This document shows positions 32,402-38,900 of a stretch of DNA of 64,000 nt, piece by piece (the first letter of the stretch is position 1; every line of letters begins with the position of its first letter). Source of the stretch: Oceanispirochaeta sp. (GTDB taxonomy: Bacteria > Spirochaetota > Spirochaetia > DSM-2461); the NCBI GenBank assembly GCA_963663385.2, contig CAXXXD010000003.1, forward strand, positions 288,001 through 352,000, read 5' to 3'. The position numbers and the translations under genes were made by a program. The notes beneath the pieces are model-generated. The model did not search any database and was not told the origin of the DNA. It saw only the letters and a program-made list of their open reading frames with translations.

Positions 32402-34471
32402 TTACCCCCAAAAGGATTTTAACATAGGTGCGATTACCAGCGACACCATGGACATAAGTTTAATCAGAATATTCAGGGACGGCCCCGCCGTATCCTTGAA
32501 GGGATCTCCCACTGTATCACCGACGACAGCGGCCTTATGGGAATCGGACCCCTTACCGCCCAGTTCTCCTCCCTCGATGGATTTTTTGGCATTGTCCCAG
32601 GCACCGCCGGAGTTGGACATGAAGATGGCCAGTACGACTCCGGATGAAGTGACTCCGGCCAACAGGCCTATCAGCATTCCCGGACCGCCCAGAAAGCCGA
32701 CAAGAAGGGGCGTTGTAACCGCGATGATTCCCGGCAGCAGCATCTCCCTGAGTGCCGCTGCGGTGCTGATATCGATACACCGGTTGTAATCGGGTTCTTC
32801 CGTTTCAGACAGAATCCCCGGTTTTTCCCTGAACTGGCGACGTACTTCCTCTATCATTTTAAAGGCGGCCCTGCCCACAGCTCCCATGGAAAGAGCCGAA
32901 AAGAGATAGGGAATGACCGCACCGACAAACAGTCCTGTCAGAACCGGAACGCTGGTCAGGTCAATAACCGCGGCTCCCGAGGATTCCTTAAAGGATGTAA
33001 AGAGGATCAGCGCTGTCAGAGCCGCCGAACCTATGGCAAACCCCTTGCCAATAGCTGCCGTTGTATTTCCAACGGCATCCAGACTGTCCGTGATATCCCT
33101 GACTTGATGGGGCATTTCAGACATCTCGGCCAATCCCCCCGCGTTATCTGCAATCGGTCCGTAAGCATCAACGGCAAGCTGAATCCCGAGGGTTACCAGC
33201 ATGCCCATGGCGGCCATGGCGACACCGTACATTCCTCCCAGGGTGAAGCTTCCCAGAATGGCTGCGGCAATAAGGATCAGAATCGGAAAGGATGACATCA
33301 TACCGACGCCTATCCCGGTAATAATAGCAGTGGCGGCCCCTGTCTCGCAGCTCTTAACAATGGAATTCACCGGACGGGTTCCTGTCCCTGTATAGTATTC
33401 GGTTATCAGGCCGATCAAAGTACCGGCAGCAAGCCCCATACAGCTGGCCAGAAATACGGCCAGCCAGCCGGTACCGTTACCATACTGTTCATCTCCCAGG
33501 AAAAATCTGAACAGGATAAAGGCAAAGAGGGCAGCCAGCCCGGCCGCACCGAATGTTCCCGTATTCAGGGCCTTCTGGGGATCCTTTCCCGGTCCTGTTC
33601 TCACAAAAAACACGCCGATTATGGATGCCAGGATACCGACAGAGGCCAGCAGAAGCGGCAAAAGCAGAAGTTTCATTTTTACCGGAGTTGAAGCATCGGT
33701 TGTCAGGCCAAGGATCATGGCCCCGACCAGGGAACCCACATACGATTCAAAAAGGTCAGCCCCCATCCCGGCCACATCGCCTACATTATCTCCCACATTG
33801 TCGGCGATAGTGGCCGGATTACGGGGGTCGTCCTCGGGAATTCCGGCTTCGACCTTACCCACCAGGTCGGCTCCCACATCGGCCGCCTTGGTAAAGATTC
33901 CTCCGCCTACGCGGGAGAAAAGGGCAATGGATGAAGCCCCCAGGGAGAATCCTGTAATAATGGGCAATACCGTCTCTATCAGGATTTCTTCGGTGCTTCC
34001 CAGGAAATTTGTAAATATCCATAGTAAAAGAGACAGACCGGACAGGCCGAGGCCTACAACGCACATTCCCATTACGGTTCCTCCGGAAAAGGCTATCCTT
34101 AAGGCGCCGTTCATACCGCAATCCAGGGCGGACTGGGTTGTCCGTGAGTTGGATGCCGTCGCAATTTTCATCCCGATGTATCCCGACAGAGCGGACAATA
34201 CCGCGCCTACAATAAAAGACAGGGACTGAAATCTGAGAAATCCTTTATTAGCCAATGCCAGAAAAAGGGATACTATTGCAATGAAAGGAAGAAGAATCCT
34301 GTACTCCCTGTAGAGGAACGTCATGGCTCCTTCCGATACATATCCACCAATCTTCCGTAAAACCGGATTGTTAACAGGTTGTCTGTATATCCGGAAACTT
34401 GTAATTAAAGCAAAAATCAATGCACCCGTTCCAGCGGCAAAGCCTATGGGTATGAATTGATTCATATTCAT
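32402..34471 (-). CDS. hppA: Membrane-integral pyrophosphatase, K+-dependent, probably Na+-translocating
   Basis: [49 protein letters not shown] (Ala at the K+-dependence site). ADLFESY has the Glu position typical of Na+-PPases. AGGAGA RBS before ATG 34471. Confidence 0.95.
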
Positions 34472-34531
34472 TTTTGATCTCCTATAAAAAGTCAATCATA
34501 AGCCTATTAACAAGCTTACAATTGAACCGGA

Positions 34532-35644
34532 TTACCCAGTTTTTACGGCATTGAATGCAGCCGCCTGCATCTTCAAGTACTTATCATCCGGAACCATCTT
34601 CAACGGATCAAAGGGTTCACGGGTTTTCAATATGGAGTACACTACCGTACTCATCTTTCTTGCAGAGGCGATAATACTCGTGCCGCTGCCCTTGTTCTTC
34701 TTCATCGCTCTGTACTTCGTCATGATACGGTAATTGCCAGTCGTTTTCCGAGTTCTAACCATTCCCATAACACACTGAACAAATGCCGTTCTCAGTTCTA
34801 CAGCCCCTCTCTTTGTTATATGCCCATGATGAATCGTCTCATTGGAGTTCTGCACCCATGGTACAAGACCGGCATAAGCCGAATACTTCTTGGCACTGGC
34901 GTACCGCTTGATATCATCCGTATAGGCCCTAATAGTCGATGCCGTTATCAATCCGACTCCCGGGATCGTCTGCAATAACTGTACATCCTCATCTTCCTTT
35001 ACAAGTTCCAGCAGGACTTTCTCTAACTGCTTGACCTGGTTCGAAACCTGATCTATCGTAGAAAGCAGCGGTTCTATCGCTTTGGCAGCGCTTCCGAAAC
35101 TCCTATGGTCCACGAGACCGATGAGGATGCGCTGCCTTTCTTTTTTACTCTGCAGCGCAGCTCTTTTTGTTTCAATTCCATACCCTAGAAGCAGTCCGTG
35201 AACCTGATTCTTCAAAGATACGACTGATTTAACAAGGATAGTTCTGGATTTAAGAACTCTACGGATATCCTCACTCTCCTGAGAACAAAGCTGTGATTCG
35301 GGAAGCATATCTTTTTCCAAGAACTCTGCTAGAGTTCTGGCATCATGCTTATCCGTCTTTTTCACTGATTCATTTACAACTTTGAATTTCAGTGTATTCA
35401 CAACCACCACCTCAATCCCTGCTAGCAATAGCTTGTTACGGAAGAACCGGGCATTTCCTGTTGATTCCACTGCAGCCCTAACATCAAGGCCCTCTTCTGT
35501 ATAGGACACTGCTTTCTCAAGAAATGCTCTGTAACCGTCCTCAGAGGTCGGATACATTCCTGATTCACAAATGCTTCTATCATCACTCAGGAAACAGACT
35601 GTTAACTGGGATTTGTGCAGATCCACTCCGATACTCATCTTCAT
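34532..35644 (-). CDS. IS110-family transposase/recombinase
   Basis: SIGVDLHK, VESTG, KTDKHDA, LLQTIPGVG.ITA, AYAGLVP..QNS (catalytic Ser loop), GHITKRG...LR. AGGAG RBS before ATG 35644. Confidence 0.95.
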   Translation of the reverse strand: MKMSIGVDLHKSQLTVCFLSDDRSICESGMYPTSEDGYRAFLEKAVSYTEEGLDVRAAVESTGNARFFRNKLLLAGIEVVVVNTLKFKVVNESVKKTDKHDARTLAEFLEKDMLPESQLCSQESEDIRRVLKSRTILVKSVVSLKNQVHGLLLGYGIETKRAALQSKKERQRILIGLVDHRSFGSAAKAIEPLLSTIDQVSNQVKQLEKVLLELVKEDEDVQLLQTIPGVGLITASTIRAYTDDIKRYASAKKYSAYAGLVPWVQNSNETIHHGHITKRGAVELRTAFVQCVMGMVRTRKTTGNYRIMTKYRAMKKNKGSGTSIIASARKMSTVVYSILKTREPFDPLKMVPDDKYLKMQAAAFNAVKTG

Positions 35645-35649
35645 ACCTT

Positions 35650-35860
35650 CGCTCCTATTGCCTAAAACAGCGCCTGTACGGTGAATTGATTCCATTCTCC
35701 TATCCGGTCTCGAAGACCATTGAATGTTTCGGTCACGGCTCTTCATTCTCCTGTACGGTCTCGGAGACCAGTAAAAATGGCGAACAGTAACCTGGCTGTT
35801 CTAAACGATGTTTAGAACATTGTATCAATCCACAAGCCTATGAAGACTTTTTATCATTCC
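35650..35860. ncRNA. Putative IS110 bridge RNA region
   Basis: Non-coding end with two 27-bp near-identical hairpin modules (35693-35719, 35744-35770), a perfect 10-bp-stem hairpin (35797-35819), and short segments matching the insertion flanks and the opposite element end. Strand and limits unresolved. Confidence 0.55.
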
Positions 35861-35913
35861 TCCTTTACTATTCAAAAACGCAACTGAACTGGTGATTAGT
35901 CATATTCAGCGGA

Positions 35914-38900
35914 TTACCCCTTCAGGACTTTCAGCATCTCCTCCAGGGAAATCTTCCTCTCTTCAAAGGCGATAAACGCCTCATCTGTCACAGAGTGTCC
36001 CGCCTGGGGGCCGGGGATTAACCGGAACCGGTCATCCAGGTTCCCTTCTGTAATCGCTGCAGCTATCTGCCCGATTGCTTCGGATGCACCCTTCCTGACA
36101 CACTCCTCGCAGAGACAGACATGAATATGTTTCTTGCCTCCCGTCTTCAGGGTCGTGGGTTCGGCAACCTTCCTCATATTATTATAGGTTGTATGAAGCA
36201 GTTCTTTGGCTGTTTTGGAACGGATCTCACCCAGAAGGCGCCGGTACAGCCCCTGCACATCCGGGTTGTCCTGACTCTGCCGGATCTGCGCATCCGTATC
36301 CTGCTCATGGAGGAAGGTGGACCTTTTGGCCCAGTCGTCCTTGGTCCGGACACTGGGGGTTCCCGCTCCGGAGATACAGCCGCCGGGGCAGGCCATAATC
36401 TCTATCATGTCCAGTCCGGTATCTTCGCCGTTCTTGATCCTCTCCACAATGGGAACCGCATTGCTGATACCGCTGATAATCCCGATACGGACCGTGGCGT
36501 CTCCCAGTCTGGCCTGGCTGATCTTGACGCCCTCCATACCATGGGCTTCGGTATACTCCAGGGGTTTGTATTTATAGGCGGGGTCCAGTTTGGATGCCGC
36601 CATCCTGAGAGCCGCTTCGGACACCCCTCCGGATACACCGAAGATAATCCCCGCTCCCGTGCTCTGCCGGAAGGGGTTGTCAAACTCGGACGGTTTGACC
36701 TGATCTTTGGTAATTCTCAGGCAGTCTGCCATTTCAAATAGTTCGATGGAAGTCAGAACGGAATCCACATCCTGCAGACCGCCTGTGTACATCTCCGGGC
36801 GGTCTGCCTCTTTTTTCTTGGCCAGGCAGGGCACAATGGAAACCACATGGAGTTTTTCCCGGTCGATATCCCTGTAGAACTCGGGGAGATAGCGTTTGAC
36901 CACGGCTCCCATCATCTGCTGGGGAGATTTACAGGAAGAAAGGTGAGGAATCACTTCCGGATAGGATTTTTCCACAAAGTTCACCCATCCTGGGCAGCAG
37001 GAGGTCAGGTGAGGAAGGGGGGTTCCCTTACCCAGTCTTTCCAGAAATTCCGTGGTCTCTTCCACAATGGTCAGGTCCGCTGCAAAGGCGAAGTCATATA
37101 CATAGTCAAAGCCGATCTTTTTCAGAAGCCCGGCGATAAAACCGGAGGTTTCCGCCGAAGTCAGCCCGTAGCGTTCGGCGACCAGCGCTCTTACGGCGGG
37201 GGCAATAAAACCGACGGTCCTGCAGTCCTCTCCGCAGTTGATGGAACTGAAGACCCTGTCTGTCGCCCGGACAAAGTCCAGAGCGCCGCAGGGGCAGACA
37301 TTGACACAGTGACCGCAGGCAATACAGTTGGTTTCGGTCAGGGGCCTGCCTGTTTTGGTGGTAACCTTGAAGTTCCCGTCCAGTGAGGTCATGGCCAGAA
37401 CATCCACACCCATTACATTGGAGCAGGCGTTTACACAGGCACCGCAGCCGATACACTTGTTGTGGTTCCGGCGGATAAAAGGGTGATCCTTCTCAATGGG
37501 AAGGTAGTTGGCCACCTTGTTGACCTTTCTATATTCAATTCCGTATTCCGTGGCTGCTGCCCGGAGGGAGCAGTGCTTTTCCTGACTGCAGCCGCAGCTG
37601 AGACAGCGTTTTGACTCTTCCATGGCCTGTTCGGCTGCGATGGTGTATTCCACCTCGTCAAAAGTCTCCTTTCTTGCCTTCATCTCCGCATGACTCAGCT
37701 TAACCCGGGGAATTTCAGGTTTATCCGCAAACTCGTATTTGGGCAGGTCTTCAAAGGACTCCATGTAGCAGGTGTACTCTTTTCCCGGCAGCTGAGCATA
37801 GCCGTGAGTCAGAAAATGATCCATGGAATCTGCCGCCATCTTCCCGGCGTTGATCGCCTGAATAACCGTAGCGGGACCGGTGGTACAGTCCCCTCCCGAG
37901 AAGATCCCTCTGGCCGAGGTTTCCATGGTTTTCGGGTTAACATCAATGTCCCCCCACTTGTTCAGCTTAACCGGAAGGTCGTCCCACAGGTAGTCGGTGT
38001 TGGTCTTCTGTCCTACAGCGGAGATAATCATATCACAGGCAAGGACCGATTCCGAACCTTCCACGGGAACGGGACGGCGGCGTCCGGATTTGTCCGGCTC
38101 ACCCAGTTCCATCCTCTGAATGCCCAGACCGGCGATGTCGTTAGTTTCGTTCAGAACAATCCTGTTGGGAGCCGAAAGGAAAAGCATCTGGATTCCCTCT
38201 TCCAGGGCTTCTTCCACTTCATAAGGTTCGGCAGGCATCTGTTCCCGTGTCCTTCTATAGACCAGAGTTACCCTGGACGCGCCGTTTCTGAGGGCAGTAC
38301 GGGCACAGTCAATGGCGGTGTTTCCTCCTCCGACGACAGCCACATGACCCTCGTTGCGCTTCTCACGGCCTCTGGTAACCAGTTCCAGGTAGTGGATGCC
38401 CGGCCGTACACCGGCCACCTTTTCGCCGTCCACCCGCATGGAACTGGGTTCCCAGGATCCTACGGCCATATAAACCGCGTCAAAATCCTTCTGCAGGTCT
38501 TCCAGTCTCAGGTGCTGTCCCAGCGCTTTTCCGGTAACGATGGTCACTCCGGCTTTCTCAATACGGGCAATTTCCCTGTCCATAACATCTTCGGGCAGGC
38601 GGTAGGAGGGGATTCCGTACCGCATCATGCCTCCCGCTTTCTCCTGCCTCTCGAAGAGGGTGACATTGTGTCCCTTCAGGGCGGAATAGTAGGCTGCGGA
38701 CAGCCCCGAGGGGCCTCCGCCCACAATGGCAAGGCGTTTTCCGGTTTTTTCCACTTCAGGGAATACCGGTTGTTCCTGCTCAACCAGATCGGCCACAAAG
38801 CGTTTGACCGGGTTGATGGCTACGGGGGTGTCCACCAGGTTGCGACGGCAGGCAGCCTCGCAGGGGTGGGGGCAGACCCGGCCACAGATGGCGGGGAGAG

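Follow-up and report, generated by a model that had tools for sequence, protein, structure and literature searches.

Introduction

RNA-guided choice of both target and donor is established for the insertion sequences (ISs) of the IS110 and IS1111 types (PMC11208160, PMC11208158, PMC11187229). In the account given by Siddiquee et al. 2024 (PMC11187229), IS1111 elements are recognized by subterminal repeats, usually of 11–13 bp, beyond which the element extends by 7 bp on the left and by 3 bp on the right, and their guide RNAs (seekRNAs) carry the complement of the top strand 5' of the match to the bottom strand, while the seekRNA of the IS110-type element ISEc21 carries the match to the bottom strand 5' of the match to the top strand. 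The element described here belongs to this superfamily and lies in a stretch of 64,000 nucleotides from Oceanispirochaeta sp. (GenBank assembly GCA_963663385.2, contig CAXXXD010000003.1, positions 288,001 to 352,000), called the window below and numbered from its first letter. It occupies positions 34481–35861 on the minus strand, i.e. 1381 bp with ends placed by the IS1111 convention and without target duplication, directly before the gene hppA. This element is real, looks recently active and combines features of IS1111 and IS110. With a probability of about 0.8, it is an RNA-guided IS with IS1111-like ends and, upstream of its recombinase gene and on the same strand, a two-loop bridge RNA that directs it to Shine-Dalgarno sequences by the mechanism proposed below.

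Like the IS1111 elements with described seekRNAs (ISEc11, ISPa11 and ISKpn4; PMC11187229), this IS displays subterminal repeats, 7/3 extensions, a fixed orientation and the same guide order, and does not duplicate its target. It differs from the usual build, as presented in that source, by its RNA region located upstream of the recombinase gene (a position ascribed there to 'a few' members), by the length of its repeats (10 bp instead of 11–13) and by the size of its recombinase (370 amino acids instead of 330–350) (PMC11187229). Unlike in the IS1111 seekRNA elements, both loops of its RNA are evident, the donor loop being distinct from the target loop, and the target is a Shine-Dalgarno sequence.

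The target of IS621 is a repetitive extragenic palindromic (REP) sequence, whereas the one used here is a ribosome-binding site. The likeness to IS621, as described by Durrant et al. 2024 (PMC11208160) and Hiraizumi et al. 2024 (PMC11208158), covers several features: the RNA lies upstream of the recombinase gene, in the left end, it comprises a 5' stem-loop followed by target and donor loops, each loop is made of an outer stem, a guide, a hairpin, a 2-nt linker beginning with G, a second guide that has up to 7 nt and stops on the core, and then two more bases, the recombinase has the DEDD and Ser residues, and the core reads CT on the opposite strand. A promoter with its two boxes on either side of the circle junction may be a further common trait. 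Our element departs from what is reported for IS621 in the mirrored arrangement of its guides and in its 10-bp repeat, which compares with none or 2–3 bp in the IS621/ISEc21 type (PMC11208160). In physical terms, the guide order found here amounts to the IS621 pairing, except that the DNA is inverted with respect to the gene for the RNA. ISEc21 shares the upstream non-coding region and the site- and orientation-specific insertion, but, as far as its description goes, it is devoid of long subterminal repeats and has the opposite guide order (PMC11187229).

Insertion at translation-initiation signals upstream of genes is also a trait of the IS900/IS901 group of the IS110 family, which is reported to insert between the Shine-Dalgarno sequence and the start codon (PMC2942039). 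In contrast, the cut considered here lies inside the Shine-Dalgarno sequence (AGG^AG), 5–8 nt before the ATG, the Shine-Dalgarno sequence is rebuilt and the recombinase gene is co-oriented with the target gene. A search of main texts, which excluded the survey supplements with their lists of target motifs, found IS900/IS901 as the only precedent for Shine-Dalgarno targeting in IS110/IS1111 elements, and no description, within the same limits, of a bridge-RNA element with a Shine-Dalgarno sequence in its loop.

Copies, ends and insertion site

The genome harbours ten copies of the element, eight of which (including the window copy) are identical over 1381 bp while the other two have one base difference. 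The sequence common to all ten extends from 34479 to 35864 and diverges beyond; a contig corresponding to this repeat has a depth of 536.8 in one public run (X2), i.e. about ten times that of its flanks (49.6 and 54.9). Read in its own sense, the element (34481–35861, minus strand) consists of the 7-bp left extension, the left repeat, the bridge RNA, the recombinase gene, the right repeat and the 3-bp right extension. The left subterminal inverted repeat (35845–35854, minus strand) reads ATAAAAAGTC in element sense and begins seven bases from the end; the right one (34484–34493, minus strand) reads GACTTTTTAT and stops three bases from the end. These 10-bp repeats are perfect reverse complements, as an earlier note, drawn up from the letters of the window, had already observed (GACTTTTTAT at 35845–35854 and ATAAAAAGTC at 34484–34493 on the plus strand).

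The junctions were read directly in the ten copies. In element sense, all ten left junctions have the form NNN-AGG-AGGAATGATAAAAAGTC, i.e. NNN-AGG abutting AGGAATG, and all ten right junctions have the form GACTTTTTAT-AGG-AG followed by 5–8 nt and an ATG, the stretch TTTTTATAGG then AG (TTTTTAT-AGG-AG) being identical in every copy. Since AGGAG is common to both junctions, the placement of the crossover is ambiguous over five bases. A metagenomic relative (L129) has a left flank ending in CACAG, followed by AGGAATG, and a right junction that still reads TAT-AGG-AG. This variant and the comparison of the ten copies therefore place the element from AG-GAATG to TAT-AGG (35861 to 34481) with AG as the exchanged core. 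A core at the TA to the left of AGGAG was ruled out, the flank's own base being kept there at left junctions. The left extension AG-GAATG (7 bp, 35855–35861, minus strand) thus comprises the core AG and the right-donor arm GAATG, as indicated by the junctions, by L129 and by the covariation with the donor loop described below; the right extension AGG (3 bp, 34481–34483, minus strand) is invariant in the ten copies and is kept in L129 despite its flank CAG.

These ends correct the boundaries given in the earlier note, which had the right flank begin at 35870 or 35904 although the element ends at 35861, and which assigned the whole of TCTCCTAT (34478–34485) to the left flank although only 34478–34480 belong to it, 34481–34485 being the element's own end. 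The comparison of copies, homologues and empty sites that it recommended fixed the ends and the core AG through the ten copies and L129 but recovered no empty site. Its two proposals about the site were borne out: the insertion point is AGG^AG, within a Shine-Dalgarno sequence and in the orientation of the next gene, in 10/10 copies, and all ten downstream open reading frames (ORFs) are intact, each with Pfam domains (their products include an H+-pyrophosphatase, an oxidoreductase, GDPD, a chemoreceptor and GNAT). The bases preceding AGGAG, also read directly, are biased as well, with C at −1 and A at −2 in nine copies each and T at −3 in seven.

At the window copy, the right target arm (34469–34480, minus strand) comprises the core AG (34480–34479), the spacer ATCAAAA and the hppA start codon ATG (34471–34469). 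The ORF concerned gives a Pfam match to H_PPase (1.7e-175), and its AGGAG Shine-Dalgarno sequence is rebuilt from the AGG of the element (34481–34483) and the AG of the target (34480–34479). The TTG listed at 34495 as the hppA start falls inside the element, the true start being the ATG at 34471.

The recombinase

Non-coding DNA extends for about 217 nt upstream of the recombinase gene (34532–35644, minus strand; 370 amino acids plus stop, from the ORF list and Pfam) and for about 51 nt on its downstream side. The gene product matches DEDD_Tnp_IS110 (PF01548; 8.7e-21, residues 5–155) and Transposase_20 (PF02371; 4.6e-19, residues 222–302), in agreement with the earlier assignment to IS110. The catalytic residues reported for IS621 are D11, E60, D102, D105 and S241 (PMC11208158). 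Alignment with the IS621 chain 8wt6_A pairs vESTG with IEATG, KTDKHDA with KTDTVDA and, at the Ser, QNS with YES, so that the Glu, the D..D and the Ser are kept; this matching of residues assumes a 2-residue offset of the chain, and the first D (GVDLHK) was placed by eye and by the Pfam match.

The recombinase displays 27% identity over 290 amino acids (81 bits) with that of an E. coli plasmid element, typed as IS1111 by its build alone (13-bp subterminal repeats, downstream non-coding region, 334 amino acids). Its match to IS621 (61 bits) is restricted to the C-terminal domain and that to ISEc21 (locus L204; 30 bits) covers 107 amino acids only. Among the matches listed in a tblastn search of plasmids, one spirochaete plasmid reaches 75% identity, the others have at most about 36% and none is a named IS. 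A longer ORF of 404 amino acids, starting at an ATG at 35746, inside the target loop, is most likely an over-extension due to ORF calling, because the relatives lack this ATG; their recombinases begin with MKMS or MRM.

A clade of related elements

A protein-guided scan of species genomes yielded 76 loci, and a metagenome scan with the right-end motif at least 117 stretches, at least 80 of them with flanks. After exclusion of L095, whose 5' side could not be parsed, the parsed set comprised 78 loci corresponding to 44 distinct elements. In the relatives with 51–79% identity and a right end within the stretch, this end matches TTGACTTTTTAT-AGG-AG either exactly or with 1–3 base changes, while the left end at the same identities is AG-G(A/T/C)NNG-ATAAAAAG; the GATAAAAAG of the left repeat is near-invariant among relatives. 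A Lentisphaeria clade with 33% protein identity has a different right end and keeps the 7+3 spacing of the extensions (judged by eye). An ATG lies 5–8 nt past AGGAG at 56 of the 64 sites of relatives with a readable right flank. The ends and this spacing together indicate that the whole clade lands in Shine-Dalgarno sequences and is co-oriented with the gene.

According to contig titles, the relatives come from Spirochaetia, Desulfobacterota, Leptospira, Treponema, Dysgonomonadaceae, Dehalococcoidales, Gracilibacteria and WWE3, a host range that calls for caution because many of these contigs are short and binned. Some metagenomic loci look different. In five of them (L096, L105, L109, L130 and L154), a left repeat (G)TAAAAAGTCAAT lies about 20 nt before the right-end motif TTGACTTTTTATAGGAG, directly before a gene, with no recombinase or bridge RNA within 1.7 kb; they may be a miniature derivative made of both subterminal repeats only, or a hairpin-forming intergenic repeat. 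In locus L039, the final ~30 bp of the right end, TGACTTTTTATAGGAG included, are duplicated in tandem.

A predicted two-loop bridge RNA upstream of the recombinase gene

The region upstream of the recombinase gene contains two paralogous units. Each comprises an outer stem and a 5' side, then a hairpin of 13 nt, a linker of 2 nt, a stretch of 7 nt whose last bases are AG, and two further bases. Both units and a 5' stem-loop are enclosed by a closing stem (35681–35833, minus strand), in which GUGGAUUGAU (35833–35824) pairs with AUCAAUUCAC (35690–35681); five pairs are predicted in it, and both sides change at two of them, in 12 and 14 sequences. The 5' stem-loop (35798–35818, minus strand), GUUCUAAAC-AUC-GUUUAGAAC, comes from the minimum-free-energy fold, and relatives have a hairpin of varying sequence at this position (alignment A1). 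The upstream unit is the target-binding loop (35731–35792, minus strand), whose outer stem pairs 35792–35781 with 35741–35731. It contains in order a 5' side CAUUUUUACU (35779–35770), a hairpin (35769–35757), the linker GU (35756–35755), the 3' guide ACAGGAG (35754–35748) and AA (35747–35746). The downstream unit is the donor-binding loop (35693–35730, minus strand), with the 5' guide CAUUC (35726–35722), AAU (35721–35719), a hairpin (35718–35706), the linker GG (35705–35704), the 3' guide AUAGGAG (35703–35697) and AA (35696–35695).

The application of RNAalifold to 40 distinct left ends predicted 26 pairs, 11 of which display compensatory changes; these are located in the closing stem, the outer stem of the target loop and both hairpins. 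A scan of 34300–36100 against Rfam, with E values up to 10, gave four chance-level matches and no bridge-RNA family. A direct repeat of form ATAGGCTT-(G/A)TG-(G)ATTGA was also found on the minus strand, at the left end (~35839–35822) and at the right end (~34511–34496). Its left copy lies just inside the inverted repeat and forms the 5' strand of the closing stem of the RNA, while its right copy directly precedes the TTGACT discussed below; this pairing of motifs also occurs in relatives.

Three guide segments covary with their DNA

Covariation was observed directly for three of the four guide segments. In the 3' guide of the target loop, the two variable bases preceding AGG-AG agree with the left flank in 79% and 95% of 41 elements, compared with 38% and 70% when the pairings are permuted (z 6.0 and 7.5); in a first pass with 29 elements, the observed value was reached in 0/5000 permutations. 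Both free bases are matched at 47 of 70 sites, and the linker base adjoining the guide gives no covariation signal. In the donor loop, the 5' guide CAUUC is complementary to the GAATG of the left end (35859–35855) and changes with it in the relatives (CGUGC with GCACG, CAUGC with GCATG, CAUAC with GTATG, CACUC with GAGTG), the three variable positions having z values of 7.1, 5.5 and 5.3 and a complementarity of 93–95% in 42 elements. The 3' guide AUAGGAG of this loop reproduces AT-AGG, the right end that does not vary, followed by the core AG. As for the two bases that follow the 3' guides, the second one in the donor loop gives 0.55 versus 0.42 with spacer position 2 (p 0.024), and those of the target loop give no signal.

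The guide also varies in its AGG part. L129 has the guide CACAG-AG and the flank CACAG directly before AG, a 5/5 fit that amounts to natural retargeting, and L061 has the guide TTGAG-AG and the flank TTTAG, a fit of 4/5. As the AGG part itself varies in L129, L061 and L095, the Shine-Dalgarno target is a setting of the system and not a constraint on it.

The fourth segment and the order of the guides

The 5' side of the target loop reads CAU-N6-U in the relatives, with a U-rich middle. The ATG-anchored matrix for this segment displays a weak diagonal. Occupied sites have A at spacer positions 3–7 in 39 of 50 cells, compared with ~38% in 1057 free AGGAG-N4-9-ATG sites, and at least four A's at these positions in 7 of 10 cases, compared with 7 of 107 free AC-AGGAG sites. 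The complementarity of the segment peaks when its U run lies opposite spacer positions 3–7, with 5.4 versus 3.2 of 9 (p 4e-5; p 2e-4 against the 107 free AC-AGGAG sites). In this best register, the CAU of the loop is opposite an ATG located six bases past AGGAG, a spacing found at 33 of 60 clade sites versus 24% in a background drawn from one genome, the sites not being independent. Pairing of the CAU with an ATG at spacing 4 or 5 was discarded, such spacings being found at just 2 and 7 of the 60 sites. This enrichment lends moderate support to the view that the U run and the CAU of the target loop probably read the A-rich spacer and the ATG.

The same segment could be read otherwise. If the sense RNA had the IS621-like order, the target 5' side CAUUUUUAC would correspond to a T-rich left flank (TTTTTAC/TTTTTAT) and pair with its bottom strand, NN-AGG-AG having another role. 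Left flanks are indeed T-rich at −4 to −7 in the family of OY776510.1 (40 of 60 cells, by eye), T occurs here in 4–5 of 10 copies at −4 to −6 versus ~0.26–0.30, the A at −2 of the OY776510.1 sites agrees with an A of the target 5' side, and the same-sense score at shift −1 is 4.6 versus 2.6. However, it is TAC, already accounted for by the 3' guide, that raises this score, the same-sense diagonal is weak at clade level (summed z ~1.3), and the homologous 5' segment of the donor loop is complementary to the right arm. Furthermore, T runs before Shine-Dalgarno sequences can be terminator tails, and hairpins precede several of the OY776510.1 sites. We therefore regard this order as improbable and retain the mirrored one.

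The strand and putative promoter of the RNA

The fold of 35870–35640 is markedly better than that of shuffled sequences in the sense direction (z −3.57, 0/200 shuffles as good) but not in the antisense one (z −1.20, 24/200). Over 1037 pair cells (26 consensus pairs in 40 sequences), standard pairs make up 97.6% on the sense strand and 87.7% on the antisense strand, and the conserved helices contain 106 G.U cells versus 3 A.C. The helices, which are direct observations, thus favour a bridge RNA that would be transcribed in the sense of the recombinase gene.

The earlier note had proposed the reverse, with the hairpin region 35693–35730 as the target loop, programmed for ..TTGAAT-AGGAGA, in an RNA antisense to the recombinase gene and with IS621-like geometry. 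All the strings on which this proposal was built occur where it placed them (TCTCCTAT at 34478–34485 and 35696–35703, TTGAAT at 35720–35725, GGTCT-CGA-AGACC at 35706–35718, ATTCAA at 35870–35875, ATTCA at 35904–35908), the ATTCAA at 35870–35875 does lie in the flank of the window copy, and the guide order on the sense strand is indeed reversed relative to that described for IS621 (PMC11208160). That order, however, is the one reported for IS1111-type seekRNAs (PMC11187229). The ATTCAA match is found in the flank of one copy in ten, i.e. at chance level, and the TTGAAT overlaps the CAUUC-AA of the donor loop. The second occurrence of TCTCCTAT is not due to chance, but it arises from 7 of its 8 bases being the right end of the element plus the core, copied by the donor loop, with one additional base; likewise, the AT of ATAGGAGA is element sequence in 10/10 copies. 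The hairpin region covaries with the element's own left end (z 5.3–7.1 for CAUUC with GAATG) and not with the flanks, and its AUAGGAG is the right end, which makes it the donor loop. The covariation between loop and target that the note had called for does exist, but at 35731–35792 (z 6.0 and 7.5 with the left flank), and its general suggestion of a bridge-RNA-like non-coding end is upheld by the three guide segments and the stems that covary. On the antisense strand, the 106 G.U cells would become A.C mismatches, the fold is no better than shuffles, and the five promoter-like matches compare with 2.6 ± 1.7 expected. An antisense RNA is thus very unlikely. Equally little credit can be given to the idea that both AGGAG-A-AUG segments are translation signals (in-frame upstream starts or ribosome decoys) and that the protein picks the site: both units do read AGGAGAAUG and the ATG at 35746 opens a 404-codon frame continuous with the recombinase gene, but relatives carry AUUG, ACUG or AGUG in place of AAUG and so lose the ATG, a single base between a Shine-Dalgarno sequence and an AUG is too short, and covariation with flank and element end is unexpected for such signals.

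Returning to the sense RNA, the joined ends of the element would read TTGACT, 17 nt ending in TGA, then TAAAAA, toward the RNA. The putative −35 box TTGACT (34495–34490, minus strand) overlaps the right repeat, and the putative −10 box TAAAAA (35853–35848, minus strand) lies within the left repeat, with a TG at 35856–35855. As TAAAAA does not have the usual final T, a promoter split across the circle junction is plausible and no more. In the window copy alone, the flank also provides a TTGAAT (the ATTCAA at 35870–35875) 16 nt upstream of TAAAAA; this may be a −35-like box that lets the integrated window copy express the RNA and the recombinase without excision.

Proposed mechanism and points against it

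Upon excision as a circle, the two ends would meet as ...TTGACTTTTTAT-AGG and AG-GAATG-ATAAAAAGTC..., giving the expected junction sequence ...TTTTTATAGG followed by AGGAATGATAAAAAG... Each loop's 3' side (7 nt, after the 2-nt linker) would run in the sense of left arm and core AG and pair with the bottom strand, and the 5' side, being the complement of the right arm, with the top strand. The donor would be read by the downstream loop, AU-AGG-AG serving for the right end and CAUUC for the GAATG of the left end. The target would be read by the upstream loop: AC-AGG-AG would cover the Shine-Dalgarno sequence and the two free bases before it, and the U run and CAU would probably serve for the A-rich spacer and the start codon. 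An exchange at the core AG would put the element into the Shine-Dalgarno sequence, in the orientation of the gene every time, and the gene's AGGAG would be rebuilt because the element ends in AGG. The chemistry of recombination is presumably that of IS621, by analogy. We infer that the RNA is produced and bound, that the junction promoter functions and that the target 5' side has the role given above.

Several observations weigh against this mechanism or restrict its scope. The transcription, the strand and the 5' end of the bridge RNA are predictions from DNA, and the sense strand was the one used to predict the consensus structure, so that the comparison of paired cells is biased in its favour, the G.U/A.C asymmetry being less affected. 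The putative −10 box lacks the conserved T at position 6 of the hexamer and fails promoter-scan rules. Contigs of four public runs contained no joint, empty site or circle junction across 33900–36400; a search for empty sites detected the left-flank gene in 1 of 20 relatives, without synteny to hppA, and the hppA 5' region used as a probe gave a single 55-nt match in one of five genomes. For the 5' side of the target loop, position-by-position matrices over 36–41 elements did not show it covarying cleanly with either flank, its best register lies 2 nt away from the one proven for the donor loop, and the A-rich spacer of occupied sites could instead reflect site accessibility or selection. The genome still contains 1444 free ACAGGAG sites, and 7 nt alone are therefore insufficient to explain the choice of site.

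The relatives add their own difficulties. Only 79 of the 203 loci were parsed, the rest being too short, without a left end or off-pattern. In L095, the guide is CACGG-AG and the left flank is mismatched. In the OY776510 family (OY776510.1, L011–L024 and L029; 15 copies), 10 of 15 sites read AT-AGG-AG although the target loop reads UU-AGG-AG. At these ten OY776510.1 sites, AT-AGG-AG is the element's own right arm, i.e. the donor's arm, and the donor loop may at times choose the site in these copies. Several OY776510.1 sites directly follow a GC-rich hairpin and a T run and so look terminator-like.

A terminator-like hairpin at the right end

Between the stop codon of the recombinase gene and the end of the element, a consensus scan detected a terminator-like hairpin with a T run (34492–34525, minus strand), made of 15 pairs; this T run belongs to the right inverted repeat. 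If it works, it would shield the downstream gene, here hppA, against read-through.

Significance

The predicted RNA carries a Shine-Dalgarno sequence in its loop; the known mechanism is unchanged. The element provides a natural example of a bridge/seek RNA aimed at a motif that precedes most genes in most bacteria, and its ends repair this motif. As the IS1111-type and IS621-type orders are mirrored, the strand of such an RNA cannot be inferred from the order of its guides. For annotation, ten genes, including hppA, are separated from their upstream DNA by 1.4 kb and have a chimeric ribosome-binding site. For engineering, the clade offers a natural scaffold with many sequenced variants, whose 7-nt guide varies (NN-AGG, CACAG or TTGAG before AG).

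A broader reading, held tentatively and at slightly less than even odds, is that this clade, whose contigs are binned to several phyla, is a natural hybrid, IS1111-like in ends and guide order and IS110-like in its upstream two-loop bridge RNA, and that its target loop is fixed on the entire translation-initiation region, with seven bases (NN-AGG-AG) for one strand and a CAU-N6 segment for the spacer and AUG on the other. Both ends would hold a partial Shine-Dalgarno sequence, by which insertion would restore the ribosome-binding site of the gene. If this is true, such a loop would give the element a near-universal, gene-sparing landing site and would free it from host-specific targets.

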